DNA from: a virus
IMG/VR virus record: IMGVR_UViG_3300045988_159790
Length of the DNA stretch: 64,000 nt
Strand: one strand, 5' to 3'
The notes under the pieces were generated by a model that did not search any database, had not been told where the DNA came from, and was given only the letters and a program-made list of their open reading frames with translations. Of the stretch, positions 8,423 through 17,934 are shown piece after piece (position 1 is the stretch's first letter; every line of letters starts with the position of its first letter). A program made the translations under genes and the position numbers.

Positions 8423-8439
8423 ATTATCTACTTTTGTCC

Positions 8440-8468
8440 TTGACTTGTGAAAATTTTTTTGGTATAAT
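8440..8468 (+). promoter_or_regulatory. promoter TTGACT-17-TATAAT for rightward late/structural operon
   Basis: Read from sequence. Confidence 0.65.
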
Positions 8469-8499
8469 TATTATAAGAATAAGAAATAAGGAGAGACTA

Positions 8500-9582
8500 A
8501 TGGAGCAACAAAAAGAAAATAGTGATTATATTAAAATGGATTTTAATATTGAATCACCTGCGGAAAGAGTAGAGAAAGTAAAAGAAATTATTGCCAACAC
8601 TCCTCCTGAAAGATTAACTCATTCTTACTTAGAGAAATTAAGTAATTACATAATTTTTGCTATGGATAAAGAAGAAAGAAAACAAAACAAAATCTTAACA
8701 GATAACCATATGCAAACAGTAAATGTAAGAGAGACATCTTTTGAAGGACTTGTAGGTAGATTAGAAAATGGTGAAGATGGTATATATAATATGATTGCGA
8801 ATGACAAAAATATTATATTTAAACCAAAATTTGAAATTACAGACGCGGATATCGCGGAAATGCCTGAGCTAAGAGAACTCCGCAAGGGCATAGAAGAATT
8901 AAAAGAACAGTTAAAAACAGCAAGAGGCAAAAAAGCATATCAAATAAAAAAACATATCATAGAAGCAAGTCAAGACCAGTATGTAATAAAAAATTCTTAT
9001 AAAAAACCTATCTATTGTATAAATCCCCTTAAAAGTGTAGCAAAATTAGATTTAGATGAACATGTAACTGTTGATGAAAATGATGAAATTCATACTGATG
9101 GTATTTTAAGTTTACTCGTGCCGCGACATATTTGCGCGGTATTATGTAATTATGAAAAATTAAGAATTCAAACTTGGGATAAGTTAAATAGTGATGTTAA
9201 ATGGTTTCTTGTAGACTTAGATAATCTTATAGATGAAACTTTAAAATATGATTATCCAATATATTATGATATCACTCTCTTGAAAATTCGCGGCTACCAG
9301 AATACAGAAATTCAAGAGTATTTAGAAATAAAATATAATGTAAATCACTCTGTTGAATATATTTCTTCTCTTTGGAGAAATAAAATACCAAAATTACTTG
9401 CGGAAAAGGCACAAGAGAAATGGTTAGTTTGGTATTATACTAACAAAGCAGAAGGAAAATGGAAAAAATGTTCAAGATGTGGGCAAATTAAGTTAGCTAG
9501 TAATAGATTCTTTTCAAAAAATAATACAAGCAAAGACCATTTTTACAGTATATGTAAATGTTGCAGAAATAAAAGAAAATAA
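8500..9582 (+). CDS. hypothetical protein with C-terminal Cys4 zinc ribbon; first gene of rightward late operon
   Basis: ATG 8500 with AAGGAGA RBS (ORF track start 8434 lies inside promoter); CSRCGQ...CKCCRNK. Confidence 0.6.
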   Translation: MEQQKENSDYIKMDFNIESPAERVEKVKEIIANTPPERLTHSYLEKLSNYIIFAMDKEERKQNKILTDNHMQTVNVRETSFEGLVGRLENGEDGIYNMIANDKNIIFKPKFEITDADIAEMPELRELRKGIEELKEQLKTARGKKAYQIKKHIIEASQDQYVIKNSYKKPIYCINPLKSVAKLDLDEHVTVDENDEIHTDGILSLLVPRHICAVLCNYEKLRIQTWDKLNSDVKWFLVDLDNLIDETLKYDYPIYYDITLLKIRGYQNTEIQEYLEIKYNVNHSVEYISSLWRNKIPKLLAEKAQEKWLVWYYTNKAEGKWKKCSRCGQIKLASNRFFSKNNTSKDHFYSICKCCRNKRK

Positions 9583-10893: not shown

Positions 10894-12635
10894 TGAGTTT
10901 ACAAAGTATATTAGACCTTTCCGCGGAAAGAGATAATAAAAAGGTAGGCTGTTCAGAAGAAAGACTAAGAGAATGTCTTCCTGAATTAAGAAAAGCTATT
11001 GCTTTTTATCGTGAATATCCAGATATTTTTGTTGATGATATTAAAGGACCAGATTGTAATTTCCAATTTTATTTTTATCAGAGAGTCTTTTTAAGGTCAG
11101 TTATGCGGCATCGTCGAGTCTATGCAGTATTTCCTCGTGCTTACAGTAAATCATTTTTAACTATGATGGCTTTAATGTTGCGTGCAATTCTTTATCCAGG
11201 TGCAGCATTATTTGTAACTACAGGTGGAAAAGAGCAAGCTGCAAGTATTACAATCGCAAAGATTGAAGAAATTTGTCGACTTATTCCCGCATTAAACAAA
11301 GAAATCAATTGGGACAGAGGAGCCTCAAAAAAATCAAAAGATAATGTAAAATATATCTTTAAAAACGGTTCTACTATTGATATTCTTGCGGCAAGGGAAT
11401 CATCCAGAGGTCAGCGTCGTACAGGTGGAGCAATGGAAGAGTGTGTACTTATTGACGGAACTGCTTTAAATGAAATCATTATTCCAACTACAAATGTCGA
11501 TAGACGACTTGCGGATGGTAGTAGAGACCCTAAAGAAACAGTAAATAAAAGTCAAGTATATATTACAACTGCAGGATGGAAGAATTCATTTGCATATGAA
11601 CACCTTATTGAGATGTTGATTGATTCAATTTTAGACCCTGGTGAAGTAATGATATTAGGTGGAACATATGAAGTTCCAGTTGAAGCTGGTCTGTTGAGTG
11701 AAGATTTTGTAGACCAGTTAAAATTACAAGGTACATTCAACGATGCTTCATTTGATAGAGAATATCGAAGTATTTGGTCAGGAGACGCGGAAAATGCATT
11801 CTTCTCAAATGAATTATTTGATAAATATCGTCAGTTACTTCAGCCAGAATATGAATTTAGTTCAAGAAGTTCAAAAAACGCATATTATATACTATCAGTC
11901 GATGTAGGTCGTTTTGGTTGTACAACTGAGGTTATGGTTATAAAGGTAACGCCGCAAGTGCAAGGAACAGCATTGAAGACTCTTGTTAATATTTACAGTT
12001 ATGATGAAGAACATTTCGGAGTTCAAGCTATAAATATAAAGAAACTTTATTACAAGTATCGTGCAAGAACCGTGGTTATAGATGCTAATGGTTTAGGTGC
12101 TGGACTTGTGGATTTTATGATAATAGGTCAAGAAGACCCGAAAACAGGAGAATATTATCCACCTTTTGGAGTTGAAGGCGGAACTTTTGATGATTGGTAT
12201 GACCAATATAAGAAATTTAAAACTGATGATATGGTTAGAGATGCAATGTATTTAATTAAAGCGAATGCACCAATTAATACTGAAGCACATAGCTATTGTC
12301 AAACTCAAATATCTAGTGGGAAAATTAAATTTTTAATTGATGAAAGAGATGCAAAAATAAAGTTAATGTCTACAAAAGTTGGTCAAGAAATGACTCCAGA
12401 ACAACGTGCGGAAAGGCTGATACCATTCACTTTAACCACGATATTGAAGGAACAGATGTTAAATCTAGTGGAAGAGAATGAGGGCGTAAATATTATTCTT
12501 AAGCAAGCTAATAGAGGAATTAAGAAAGATAAGTTTTCTGCTTTCGAGTATGGATTATATTATATAAAGCAGCAAGAAGATAGGAAAAAAGATAGACATA
12601 GTAGAGATGTTTCAAAAATGATGTTTTTCAGTTAA
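10893..12635 (+). CDS. terminase large subunit
   Basis: 580 aa; N-terminal ATPase region with deviant Walker A-like VFPRAYSKSF, C-terminal acidic nuclease-like region (VVIDANGLGAGLVDF); position before portal; terminator 12640-12676 after. Confidence 0.7.
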   Translation: MSLQSILDLSAERDNKKVGCSEERLRECLPELRKAIAFYREYPDIFVDDIKGPDCNFQFYFYQRVFLRSVMRHRRVYAVFPRAYSKSFLTMMALMLRAILYPGAALFVTTGGKEQAASITIAKIEEICRLIPALNKEINWDRGASKKSKDNVKYIFKNGSTIDILAARESSRGQRRTGGAMEECVLIDGTALNEIIIPTTNVDRRLADGSRDPKETVNKSQVYITTAGWKNSFAYEHLIEMLIDSILDPGEVMILGGTYEVPVEAGLLSEDFVDQLKLQGTFNDASFDREYRSIWSGDAENAFFSNELFDKYRQLLQPEYEFSSRSSKNAYYILSVDVGRFGCTTEVMVIKVTPQVQGTALKTLVNIYSYDEEHFGVQAINIKKLYYKYRARTVVIDANGLGAGLVDFMIIGQEDPKTGEYYPPFGVEGGTFDDWYDQYKKFKTDDMVRDAMYLIKANAPINTEAHSYCQTQISSGKIKFLIDERDAKIKLMSTKVGQEMTPEQRAERLIPFTLTTILKEQMLNLVEENEGVNIILKQANRGIKKDKFSAFEYGLYYIKQQEDRKKDRHSRDVSKMMFFS

Positions 12636-12639
12636 AAAA

Positions 12640-12676
12640 TGCGGGCAGATTTATATAATTTGCCCGTACTTATTTT
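12640..12676 (+). terminator. intrinsic terminator after terminase gene
   Basis: GCGGGCAGA...TTGCCCGT imperfect hairpin + TTATTTTT. Confidence 0.5.
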
Positions 12677-12728
12677 TAATTAATATAGTAAGGATTACAT
12701 CATTGTACACATTGTGGAGGTGAGTAAT

Positions 12729-13085
12729 TTGAGAAGTTCTCGCGGAGAAATAAAAATTGAAGAAATTTTAACAATGGCAAATTTACCTTTTCAGGAAGAA
12801 TATAGCTTTCCAGATTTAGTAAGTTCAAGTGGAAGACCATTACGTTTTGACTTCTGTGTATTTGATGACAATGGAGATATAGATTTCTTAATCGAGTATC
12901 AAGGTATTCAACACTACGAGGCCAAGTCGAAATTTGGAGGTACTAAAGGGTTATATCGCCAGCAATATAATGATAAGATGAAAAGAATTTATTGTCAGCA
13001 ACATAATTATACTTTAGTTATTATTCCTTATTGGGAAGAGGGATTAGTAGATTATGATTATTTATTAAAAGCCGCAGGTTATTGA
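12729..13085 (+). CDS. PD-(D/E)XK endonuclease, DUF559/Vsr-like (free-standing homing-endonuclease-like)
   Basis: RFDFCVFDD...IEYQGIQHYE resembles DUF559 ...DF..IE.DG.QH core; TTG start 12729 with GGAGGTGAG RBS (ORF track GTG 12714 overlaps the RBS). Confidence 0.55.
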   Translation: MRSSRGEIKIEEILTMANLPFQEEYSFPDLVSSSGRPLRFDFCVFDDNGDIDFLIEYQGIQHYEAKSKFGGTKGLYRQQYNDKMKRIYCQQHNYTLVIIPYWEEGLVDYDYLLKAAGY

Positions 13086-13110
13086 CTTTTAACGAAAAAT
13101 TTGATATAAT
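13082..13110 (+). promoter_or_regulatory. internal promoter TTGACT-17-TATAAT upstream of portal gene
   Basis: Read from sequence. Confidence 0.6.
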
Positions 13111-16851: not shown

Positions 16852-17886
16852 ATGGCATTACAGTATAGTGATATGTTAGCATTATGTAAGACAGTTGCTA
16901 AAGCTAATCCAGCTTCTCCTGTTGCTTATAGCTTCGGAGATAAAAAGTTTGGTTATGAAGATATGCATGAAACACTTCGTTCAGAGTTTCAGGCTTTAGC
17001 TCCAGATTACAGAACTTATGTAGAAAATCAGAATACAATATTCAGATTATTAGAAGAAACTTTCGATGATGTTTTACCAGAGAGAGTTATGCAGCAATAT
17101 TCTCAGTTTGCTGAAATTAAGACATTCGCGCAAGGAGATAAGCCTATTTTCTTACAGAGAATTACAACAGCTTCTCGTAGAAGAGCAAAGCAGTTCATTG
17201 GTAAGGTTGGCTTAAATGGTATGTACGAGGCATTCAGACTTGATGGTCGTGCTTACGAAGTAACAACTAACGCTATTGGTGGCGCTGCTAGAATCGGCTT
17301 TGAAGAATTCCTTGATGGTCGTGTAAATATGGCAGATGTCCTTGATATCGTTCTTGAAGGTCTTGATGAGTGCATCTATGTTGAGATTGAGAAGCAGTTA
17401 ATTGGAGCTGCTAAGAATGTTCAGGCAGCAAATAAGCATTCAGATAGTAAATTCAATGAATCACAGATGGATAGATTACTTTCTATTGCTGATTCTTATG
17501 GAAAGTCAACAATTTATTGTACTTTTGAATTTGCGGCAACAATGATTCCTTCAGAAGGTTGGATTTCAGATGAAATGAGAAATCAGAAGTGGAATAATGG
17601 TTACCTTGGTAACTATAAAGGACATACAGTAATTGTATTACCACAATCTTTTGAAGATGAAACAAATACAACAAAGGTTATTGACCCATCATATGCATTC
17701 ATTATTCCTACTGGTGCTGAAAAGCCAGTTAAGATTGCATTTGAAGGTGGTACAATTGCTAAGAGCTTCACAGGATATGATAACTCAGAAGAAATTCATA
17801 TCTATAAGAAGGTCGGTGTAAGAGCTATATTCTCTAATGCAATTTGTGTATATCAGAACACAACTCTTAAGAGAACAGCAGCCTAA
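16852..17886 (+). CDS. major capsid protein (putative)
   Basis: 344 aa; strong RBS; followed by very strong intrinsic terminator 17900-17934, as expected for the most abundant structural transcript. Confidence 0.6.
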   Translation: MALQYSDMLALCKTVAKANPASPVAYSFGDKKFGYEDMHETLRSEFQALAPDYRTYVENQNTIFRLLEETFDDVLPERVMQQYSQFAEIKTFAQGDKPIFLQRITTASRRRAKQFIGKVGLNGMYEAFRLDGRAYEVTTNAIGGAARIGFEEFLDGRVNMADVLDIVLEGLDECIYVEIEKQLIGAAKNVQAANKHSDSKFNESQMDRLLSIADSYGKSTIYCTFEFAATMIPSEGWISDEMRNQKWNNGYLGNYKGHTVIVLPQSFEDETNTTKVIDPSYAFIIPTGAEKPVKIAFEGGTIAKSFTGYDNSEEIHIYKKVGVRAIFSNAICVYQNTTLKRTAA

Positions 17887-17899
17887 GTAAAATTTAATA

Positions 17900-17934
17900 G
17901 GGGAGATAATTAATTTTATCTCCCCATTTTTTTT
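17900..17934 (+). terminator. strong intrinsic terminator after putative major capsid gene
   Basis: GGGGAGATAATTAATTTTATCTCCCC + ATTTTTTTT. Confidence 0.85.

Follow-up and report, generated by a model that had tools for sequence, protein, structure and literature searches.

Organization of the Terminase–Portal Locus

We analyzed a 64-kb stretch of viral DNA, hereafter called the window, which covers less than half of a genome of ~150 kb (IMG/VR record IMGVR_UViG_3300045988_159790). An open reading frame (ORF) for a small nuclease, a terminator-like hairpin, and a promoter-like site, which the original prediction had placed between the terminase gene TerL and the portal gene, were all present there (table 1). 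The nuclease gene occupies the gap that separates two consecutive transcription units, within a same-strand late block of ~50 kb. No group I intron or other Rfam element was found in the window.

Table 1. Features of the terminase–portal locus in the window, and short inserts in the nuclease genes of related loci
Feature	Position	Strand	Description
Promoter TTGACT-17-TATAAT with TG	8440..8468	+	Same type as the site before the portal gene; heads the unit of the sigma-like gene, a 430-aa gene, and TerL
TerL, 580 aa	10893..12635	+	Matches to phrog_2, phrog_15503, and phrog_24618; uninterrupted and intronless in the window
Terminator-like hairpin and T-run, 3' of TerL	12640..12678	+	12-bp stem, 5-nt loop
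RBS GGAGGTGA	12716..12723	+	Strong site, 5 nt upstream of the TTG; read off the sequence
Nuclease ORF, 118 aa, TTG start	12729..13085	+	Predicted stand-alone Vsr/EDxHD fold, catalytic core only
Promoter-like site TTGACT-17-TATAAT	13082..13110	+	Sigma-70-type, extended -10 TG, 11/12 matches; before the portal gene
Portal, 534 aa	13137..14741	+	phrog_2739, E=4e-86; anchor for the synteny analysis
Insert, L056	before F40-D41		CTT[TAG CCG CTA], +9
Insert, L073	before F40-D41		CTT[TAG CTC], +6
Insert, L174	before F40-D41		CGA[TAGCCGA], +7
Insert, L176	before F40-D41		CGA[TAGC], +4
Insert, L164 group	H62/Y63		CAG[TGA CAG], +6
Insert, L015 group	H62/Y63		CAT[AGGTT CAT], +8
Insert, L076	H62/Y63		CAC[CTAC CAT], +7
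Insert, L023	H62/Y63		TAT[TAAC], +4

The hairpin is separated from the end of TerL (position 12635) by 4 nt; five of the 12 pairs in its stem (12640–12668) are G-C, its dG is approximately -17 kcal/mol, and it is followed by CTTATTTTTA. It was the strongest among the five terminator-like sites found in 10 kb, a number that was not above chance (3.8 expected). The promoter-like site downstream, the -35 hexamer of which overlaps the nuclease stop codon, was compared between relatives and controls: sites with at least 11/12 matches and a 17-nt spacer were observed upstream of the portal gene in 38 of 68 distinct relatives and in only 2 of 544 control windows, which indicates that the portal promoter is more than a chance match. 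This promoter is predicted from its sequence to drive the portal gene and the downstream structural genes. The description of the nuclease gene as flanked by a terminator-like hairpin and a promoter was thus correct for the window. Of these two elements, the hairpin is the less conserved, with a strong one (dG of -13 or below) 3' of TerL in a minority of relatives only. The upstream unit that includes TerL starts with a promoter of the same type, and the probable true start of its sigma-like ORF is located near position 8500, downstream of that promoter.

An AAGGAG or GGAGG sequence precedes the nuclease gene in nearly all of the 98 distinct relatives. The start codon equivalent to the TTG of the window is ATG in 69 of 82 related loci, which favors the 118-aa start over an upstream GTG at position 12714. 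A AATATAGTAAGG-like motif upstream of the nuclease gene was considered as a phage-specific promoter and was dropped, as its 13 matches in the window did not exceed the 15.5 expected.

Fold and Active Site of the Nuclease

The original prediction had described the 118-aa protein as DUF559/Vsr-like, and the DUF559 identity was not borne out at the Pfam level: Pfam DUF559 (PF04480) gave no match even at E<=1, the only Pfam matches being sub-threshold ones to RAP (E=0.055) and DUF2726 (E=0.098), and no NCBIfam match was obtained. The motif IEYQGIQH of the window protein has a spacing that we take to be that of the 'IExDGxxH' signature of DUF559. Among the anti-phage defense families of PADLOC, none matched the nuclease. 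The PHROG assignment was phrog_9084 ('homing endonuclease', E=7e-28), and the protein also matched an internal domain of longer 'HNH/intron-encoded nuclease' PHROG families; in public phage records, the gene is labeled 'homing endonuclease', 'HNH endonuclease', or 'hypothetical protein'. Searches of the PDB with TerL and with the nuclease profile gave no sequence-level relatives, and only fold comparison was informative.

An AlphaFold2 model built with 47 homologues (pLDDT 83) showed an alpha-beta-beta-beta-alpha-beta topology. The predicted fold was closest to Vsr and to the catalytic domain of I-Bth0305I, and its core could be superimposed on both; the identity to Vsr was 18%, and the latter is longer (155 vs 118 aa). 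The fold also occurs in RNA-binding RAP domains, a point against a role in DNA processing. Residues E7, D41, E56, Q58, H62, N81, and D82 were invariant in the 47 homologues and were retained across 108 distinct gene sequences, and a putative active site is formed by E7, D41, E56/Q58, H62, and D82. All elements of the EDxHD pattern were found, with a Glu and an Asp located in helices 1 and 2, respectively, a further Asp in strand 2, a strand 3 residue that is polar or acidic, and a His following this strand; the Glu/Asp/x/His/Asp catalytic set is the hallmark of both Vsr and the EDxHD homing endonucleases (PMC3239194). The probable correspondence of these residues to D51, H64, H69, and D97 of Vsr is one of secondary-structure position and of published description (PMC3239194), rather than of residue-level superposition. 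On the basis of the structural model, we assigned the 118-aa protein to the Vsr/EDxHD branch of the PD-(D/E)XK superfamily at the fold level. The nuclease looks catalytically competent, as predicted from its intact residues. Thus, the PD-(D/E)XK-type identity that had been proposed was upheld, and modeling revealed no loss of the nuclease residues.

The catalytic core takes up the whole of the 118 aa, and a DNA-binding or target-recognition module is absent. To place the protein among its relatives, its profile was compared with a library of 1.8 billion proteins, in which 19,741 clusters matched and only 22 did so at E<=1e-30. The latter were mostly stand-alone proteins of 110–135 aa or shorter fragments, and the next tier consisted mostly of proteins of 230–500 aa with a C-terminal Vsr-like domain. 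These tiers indicate that the window gene and its stand-alone orthologues form a group of their own, to which true homing endonuclease domains are related as paralogues. Fragmentary or chimeric proteins from the large database (e.g., P0145, a portal–nuclease chimera) were judged too unreliable to interpret.

Distribution and Conservation of the Nuclease Gene

Related loci were gathered from IMG/VR, GenBank phages, and a genome collection with the portal as the anchor. The nuclease gene was located directly upstream of the portal gene in all 137 viral or phage loci with a portal identity of 33–100% (108 distinct gene sequences), and all 10 loci from the genome collection with at least 33% portal identity carried it as well, giving 147 loci in total. 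The carriers include the Enterococcus phages VRE9_3, EF1, EF5, and H1 and phage phAss-1. The original prediction had looked to relatives without the insert to define an empty site; no empty TerL–portal site was found among the 147 in-clade loci, and the gene was lacking only in distant outgroups. The 30 outgroup loci (portal 24–31% identical), of the SPbeta-like, phiCD211, Sundance, and KKP_3916 types, all lacked the gene, and with few exceptions their TerL and portal genes are immediate neighbors, with a gap of 20–230 nt; in the named distant relatives examined individually, the two genes are only 16–30 nt apart. It is relative to these outgroups with adjacent TerL and portal that the gene is indeed an insert between two conserved genes. 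No outgroup phage record was matched by a megablast search with the TerL–nuclease–portal region. The presence and absence of the gene split cleanly along the phylogeny, which points to one ancient gain followed by vertical descent; on this comparative evidence, we place a single insertion at the TerL–portal junction of the common ancestor of a family-level clade, with vertical inheritance since. The clade comprises gut and rumen siphophages with genomes of roughly 135–160 kb, including the window phage, the Enterococcus phages EF1/EF5/H1/VRE9, and phAss-1; the published description of phAss-1 gives no genome-end type. The genome collection was uninformative about hosts: whole-phage contigs were binned in metagenome-assembled genomes with the incompatible labels Bacilli, Methanobrevibacter, Treponema, and Bacteroidales.

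Amino acid identities to the window proteins were 61–83% for the nuclease, 52–70% for the portal, and 59–76% for TerL; for the Enterococcus phage VRE9_3, the corresponding values were 57%, 33%, and 41%. The conservation of the nuclease gene thus equals or exceeds that of its neighbors. The pairwise identities of the nuclease and the portal were strongly correlated (Mantel r=0.82), with none of 2,000 permutations giving a value as high. The dN/dS of the nuclease gene ranged from 0.02 to 0.14, and comparison with the closely related locus L002 gave a dN of 0 and a dS of 0.34. In one rearranged locus (L074), TerL is no longer adjacent, and the nuclease gene is still located 81 nt upstream of the portal gene. 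Taken together, these results make us highly confident that this is a fixed core phage gene and not a mobile homing endonuclease gene. The mobility that had been proposed originally is thus contradicted by the occurrence of the gene in 137 of 137 and 10 of 10 loci, by its co-divergence with the portal, by purifying selection, and by the lack of a DNA-binding module.

Homing Endonucleases and Short Inserts in Related Loci

Several other endonuclease genes were observed near TerL, the nuclease gene, and portal in relatives, and all of them are patchy in distribution and multi-domain, unlike the window gene. In two loci with 93–94% DNA identity to the window (L002 and L003), TerL carries a 1079-bp insert with an HNH+NUMOD ORF at a site equivalent to window position 11485/11487, and group I introns are present in TerL of L015 and L044. 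The latter locus also encodes a 381-aa protein with zinc-ribbon repeats and a C-terminal Vsr-like domain, as well as a 303-aa HNH/NUMOD protein. A zinc-ribbon+Vsr gene is located between TerL and the nuclease gene in L129, L134, and L144, and in L019-22 and L138, the nuclease gene and portal are separated by a GIY-YIG+NUMOD gene.

The nuclease gene itself is interrupted in some relatives. Eight independent alleles carry inserts of 4–9 nt at two places, either just before F40-D41 or at H62/Y63 (table 1). The first codon of the insert is a stop in six of the eight alleles, and AGG and CTA in the other two; the last codon matches the codon preceding the insert in six of the eight, which is the anatomy of short ribosomal hops. 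In addition, a 262-aa GIY-YIG gene was found 9–26 nt upstream of the nuclease gene in eight loci from three lineages, all eight of which carry an H62 insert; the GIY-YIG domain was confirmed by Pfam PF01541 for the L015 and L164 copies. An H62 insert occurs without a full 262-aa GIY-YIG gene in L076 only, where an apparent 3' end of such a gene remains. By hand calculation, the association between the GIY-YIG gene and an H62 insert has a value of roughly p~1e-5 at the lineage level. The upstream GIY-YIG genes appear to target the nuclease gene of these relatives. The window copy is uninterrupted, and both the short inserts and the GIY-YIG cassette are absent from the window.

The stop and frameshift inserts in eight lineages could mean that the nuclease gene is dispensable, although for one lineage the substitutions argue against this. 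L164 and L169 both carry the TGA insert, and their nuclease genes differ by 14 synonymous substitutions and a single nonsynonymous one; 9 of the former and the nonsynonymous one are located downstream of the TGA. In-frame TGA is absent from TerL and portal of these loci. This substitution pattern indicates that the half of the gene downstream of the TGA is still translated and that the nuclease product matters. The picture as a whole, which resembles the mobA/gene 60 cassette of T4, suggests that homing endonucleases treat the nuclease gene like other indispensable genes.

Stop-Codon Usage in the Clade

The window uses the standard code, and at least four different stop-codon usages were recognized in the clade as a whole, affecting TerL, the nuclease gene, and portal. 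In-frame TAG aligns with Gln in L076, L080, L081, and phAss-1, and with Trp or Tyr in L026-33; in-frame TGA aligns with Trp or Tyr in L059-63. In about 30 loci (L126-L168), in-frame TAG aligns with Glu and in some cases Asp, also at the invariant nuclease residues E7 and E56. An interpretation of the in-frame stops as marks of pseudogenes was rejected for most loci, since lineage-wide reassignment of stop codons is also seen in TerL and portal. Reassignment of TGA to Trp is known, and recoding of TAG to Gln is mentioned in the literature; a literature keyword search found no mention of TAG read as Glu. In the loci with TAG aligned to Glu, no suppressor tRNAs were found near portal in roughly 11 kb per locus.

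Proposed Role of the Nuclease and Alternative Explanations

From the bare catalytic core and the site of the gene in the late packaging and head block, we proposed a low-level, late DNA-processing role. In this explanation, which we consider reasonably probable as a whole, the protein is a vertically inherited minimal Vsr/EDxHD core nuclease that serves as a late DNA-processing accessory. The gene was inserted once and has since been kept as a core gene by strong purifying selection. Its position behind a terminator and ahead of the portal promoter suggests that the nuclease is made in small amounts, and it would act late in infection as an accessory Mg2+-dependent DNA endonuclease. It could help the terminase–portal machine to mature or cut concatemeric DNA; alternatively, it could trim branched or mismatched DNA before packaging. 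Since a DNA-reading module is absent, specificity must come from elsewhere, and its most likely source would be DNA structure or a partner protein.

A more specific role as a packaging or maturation accessory nuclease is a tentative proposal, toward which we lean less than toward the general one. Conserved nucleases beside packaging genes are needed for virion production in other phages (PMC3592412, PMC12967558), and the gene position is the sole link between the present nuclease and packaging. Two further observations speak against such a role. The three Asp residues of the TerL nuclease motif (D337, D397, and D546) were invariant in 35 relatives, so there is no missing terminase nuclease to replace; a loss of the TerL nuclease compensated by the 118-aa gene was rejected on the same grounds. 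Moreover, outgroups with homologous TerL and portal manage without the nuclease gene. We also considered, as a somewhat unlikely extension, that the nuclease, probably derived from a homing endonuclease domain, is an obligatory low-copy partner of terminase and portal and a target of the GIY-YIG endonucleases, with the D41 and H62 inserts being protective and read through by hopping or frameshifting. In such a case, its indispensability and its conserved catalytic-site codons would be what makes the gene a target for GIY-YIG homing.

These proposals were weighed against other explanations of the gene. An active free-standing homing endonuclease gene would cut the TerL–portal junction or a neighboring gene in phages without it and would spread by recombinational repair during co-infection. 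Its fold and motifs match the EDxHD family of homing endonucleases, the PHROG and GenBank annotations read 'homing endonuclease', the gene is an insertion relative to distant outgroups and is preceded by a terminator-like site and followed by a promoter, and homing endonuclease genes cluster in this neighborhood. However, no empty site exists in the 147 in-clade loci, and the genomes without the gene have only 24–31% portal identity and no megablast match, such that homing by homologous repair looks implausible there. In addition, the gene co-diverges with portal and has remained under strong purifying selection long after fixation, and its uniform length of ~118 aa without NUMOD, HTH, or zinc-ribbon modules is unlike that of both the characterized family members and the neighboring paralogues. 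We therefore regard active homing as extremely unlikely. A general recombination or repair nuclease with an incidental location, for example a resolvase, a debranching enzyme, or a Vsr-like mismatch nickase, is also an unlikely explanation, but less so. The small size would suit a dimeric structure-specific nuclease, and recognition of DNA structure would need no sequence-reading domain; on the other hand, the protein is only 18% identical to Vsr and is shorter (118 aa vs 155 aa), and a strict linkage to portal over deep time, even in the rearranged L074, would be unexpected for a generic repair gene.

It is very unlikely that the nuclease is a weapon that degrades host DNA or the unprotected DNA of co-infecting phages. 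Such a role would agree with the intact catalytic residues and with a phage population engaged in nuclease-mediated conflict, as seen from the numerous homing endonuclease genes in the TerL–nuclease–portal region. The gene follows a terminator and is part of the late block for structure and packaging, however, and is not among early genes; an inhibitor or immunity gene is not evident alongside, and no match to PADLOC or other defense families was obtained. Finally, an RNA-processing endonuclease or RNA-binding protein of the RAP/FASTKD-like type, acting on late polycistronic transcripts, would be consistent with the sub-threshold RAP match (E=0.055), but the invariant acidic and His residues fit the DNA-cleaving set of Vsr and I-Bth0305I, and by sequence the protein is most closely related to DNA homing endonuclease domains. 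This possibility we consider improbable in the extreme. Thus, a vertically inherited core nuclease with a late accessory role in DNA processing is the explanation that we favor.

In public records, the gene is labeled as an endonuclease or as a hypothetical protein; the comparative sequence evidence instead shows a nuclease core of the EDxHD/Vsr type that has become fixed in the packaging block. This evidence identifies a core packaging-block gene in a large and mostly uncultured clade that nevertheless includes culturable Enterococcus phages. More generally, the clade represents a natural experiment, in which three adjacent genes are surrounded by several kinds of homing endonucleases, by short recoding inserts, and by no fewer than four stop-codon usages.

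Comparison with Known Systems

The closest characterized relatives are found in the I-Bth0305I/EDxHD family (PMC3239194; PDB 3R3P), which shares the same conserved acidic and His set with the window nuclease. The close paralogues of the window nuclease in this family form the C-terminal part of phage endonucleases, some of them intron-encoded and others free-standing. Unlike these, the window nuclease lacks an N-terminal NUMOD, HTH, or zinc-ribbon module and is located outside any intron or intein; rather than occurring sporadically, it is fixed, keeps its synteny throughout a family-level clade, and is under purifying selection. Among the traits of homing genes, it is free-standing between conserved genes, and empty sites, a DNA-binding module, and incongruent descent were not found. 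With respect to Escherichia coli Vsr (PDB 1CW0) and the DUF559/NGO0050-type proteins, the window nuclease is shorter than Vsr and shares 18% identity with it, DUF559 is unmatched, the window nuclease is not known to be associated with a cytosine methyltransferase, and the context is a phage late operon.

For the GIY-YIG genes and short inserts of the relatives, a parallel exists in T4, where mobA and the 50-nt bypass of gene 60 form a cassette (bioRxiv 10.1101/2022.08.31.505936). In both cases, a free-standing homing gene lies beside a conserved gene that carries a short insert at a conserved coding site, which is untranslated in T4 and predicted to be so in the relatives. The inserts of the relatives are only 4–9 nt long, however, the associated endonuclease is GIY-YIG rather than HNH, and bypass and immunity are putative here. 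If the nuclease were indeed an obligatory partner of terminase and portal protected by such inserts, the D41 and H62 inserts with their GIY-YIG genes would represent miniature versions of the mobA/gene 60 cassette.

The proposed role itself is best compared with that of HK97 gp74, the phi12/80alpha-type HNH proteins, and Skunavirus HrdP, which are likewise small nuclease genes conserved beside packaging genes group-wide and on which genome maturation or the production of virions depends (PMC3592412, PMC12967558, PMC9410871). Conserved adjacency to terminase and portal genes throughout the lineage, the trait expected of a packaging nuclease, was also found for the window gene, which stays with portal where TerL has moved. 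Both these terminase-associated HNH proteins and the window nuclease have little or no intrinsic sequence-specificity module. In contrast to the HNH partners, the window nuclease has a predicted Vsr-like PD-(D/E)XK fold rather than a beta-beta-alpha-Me fold, is encoded at the TerL–portal junction and not next to TerS or a cos site, and is known from its genes alone; thus, it would be a functional analogue at most and not a member of the same family. If the nuclease is a packaging or maturation factor, it would represent a second, structurally unrelated answer to the accessory role played by the HNH nucleases, and a clear case of the domestication of a nuclease domain from a selfish element.

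Mobile Elements in and around the Terminase Gene

The TerL gene of the window is uninterrupted and represents the empty allele of a site that is occupied in two relatives of 93–94% DNA identity, L002 and L003, in which a 1079-bp insertion encoding an HNH_3+NUMOD1 endonuclease splits the gene; no group I intron was called by Rfam in L002 at the gathering threshold. In two further loci, L015 and L044, TerL was broken by group I introns (RF00028, 67–106 bits). Of the two homing endonuclease ORFs at the L044 TerL, one encodes an HNH/NUMOD protein of 303 aa and the other a zinc-ribbon protein of 381 aa whose C-terminus is paralogous to the 118-aa nuclease. The database proteins matching the nuclease profile included two in which the nuclease adjoins other sequence. 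P0124 (296 aa) resembles a homing endonuclease in its architecture, with HTH/NUMOD-like modules fused C-terminally to the stand-alone nuclease; in P0145, portal sequence comes first and the nuclease follows from residue 43, and this protein is probably a metagenomic chimera or rearrangement.

In a 137-kb relative (L074, 1–5563), TerL is absent from the upstream position and the nuclease gene is adjoined by a divergent minus-strand block encoding metallophosphatases, a P-loop kinase, and a PhoH-like protein; the nuclease gene still lies upstream of the portal gene with a spacing of 81 nt. In two relatives with TAG aligned to Gln, a protein of ~400 aa with a signal-peptide-like N-terminus is encoded between TerL and the nuclease gene, and looks like a moron and not a homing endonuclease gene.

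Coordinates of features in the window and in related loci collected with the portal gene as anchor
Feature	Window	Related loci
Sigma-factor-like ORF (phrog_5767)	8434-9582	
Consensus promoter sites	8440-8468 (+); 8422-8394 (-)	
Site of 1079-bp TerL insertion	11485/11487	L002 3272-4350; L003
344-aa ORF	16852-17886	
Terminator-like hairpin (perfect 10-bp, G+C-rich)	17900-17925	
Group I introns (RF00028)		L015 907-1333 and 1651-1881; L044 3624-3845
Homing endonuclease ORFs at TerL		L044 330-1241 and 1729-2874
Inserted ~400-aa gene		L076 1170-2375; L081 4294-5484
GIY-YIG gene		L015 4052-4840; L017 955-1740; L016 2-508; L023 321-1133; L164 2006-2797; also L166, L169, L172
Nuclease-gene inserts		L056 ~1808; L073 ~986; L174 ~3715; L176 ~3705; L015 5032-5040, equivalents L016 (~703-709) and L017 (~1935-1941); L023 ~1333; L076 ~2711; L164 ~2986, equivalent sites in L166, L169, L172

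Other Features of the Window and Host Labels

The sigma-factor-like ORF as listed includes a consensus promoter at its 5' end, so that its true start is probably near 8500; a divergent consensus promoter on the minus strand points away from this one. The last ~45 residues of the ORF contain a Cys-rich motif with a weak match to endonuclease VII/HNH zinc-finger families (E=1.5e-4). Directly 3' of the 344-aa ORF, probably the major capsid gene, is a hairpin with T-runs on both strands, which makes it terminator-like in both directions.

Contigs of this clade of whole-phage size (up to 159 kb) from the genome collection (L173–L182) were binned into MAGs labeled Bacilli, Eubacteriales, Methanobrevibacter, Bacteroidales, and Treponema. 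This placement is almost certainly a binning artefact, and the labels are therefore uninformative on the host.

Stop Codons and Short Inserts in the Nuclease Gene

At least four distinct in-frame stop-codon usages were observed inside this one phage clade. TAG aligned mostly with Glu in ~30 loci among L126–L168 (e.g., L141, L142, L149, L155, and L168), including at two invariant residues of the nuclease, E7 and E56; a limited keyword search of the literature found no mention of TAG=Glu. Trp/Tyr positions aligned with TAG in four loci (L026, L030, L031, and L033) and with TGA in four (L059, L060, L062, and L063), and TAG aligned with Gln in four loci (L076, L080, L081, and L083), phAss-1 among them.

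Eight independent alleles with inserts of 4–9 nt were found in the nuclease gene of relatives, confined to two places at putative catalytic residues, just before D41 or at H62. Most have a stop codon or a rare codon at the start, and in six of the eight the last codon of the insert matches the codon preceding the insert. From these sequences, the inserts look like sites of short hops or frameshifts in translation. In the part of the gene that follows the inserted TGA, the L164/L169 pair still differs by nine synonymous versus one nonsynonymous change.

In three lineages, the nuclease gene is preceded at a distance of 9–26 nt by a free-standing GIY-YIG homing endonuclease gene (~262 aa). An insert at the H62 codon accompanies this endonuclease gene in every locus that has it, and among the remaining loci occurs only in L076, which suggests that the H62-codon site may be targeted by the GIY-YIG endonuclease and that the insert may confer immunity. 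Such an arrangement in these relatives, with an endonuclease aimed at a neighboring gene and an insert conferring immunity, would resemble that of T4 mobA/gene 60.
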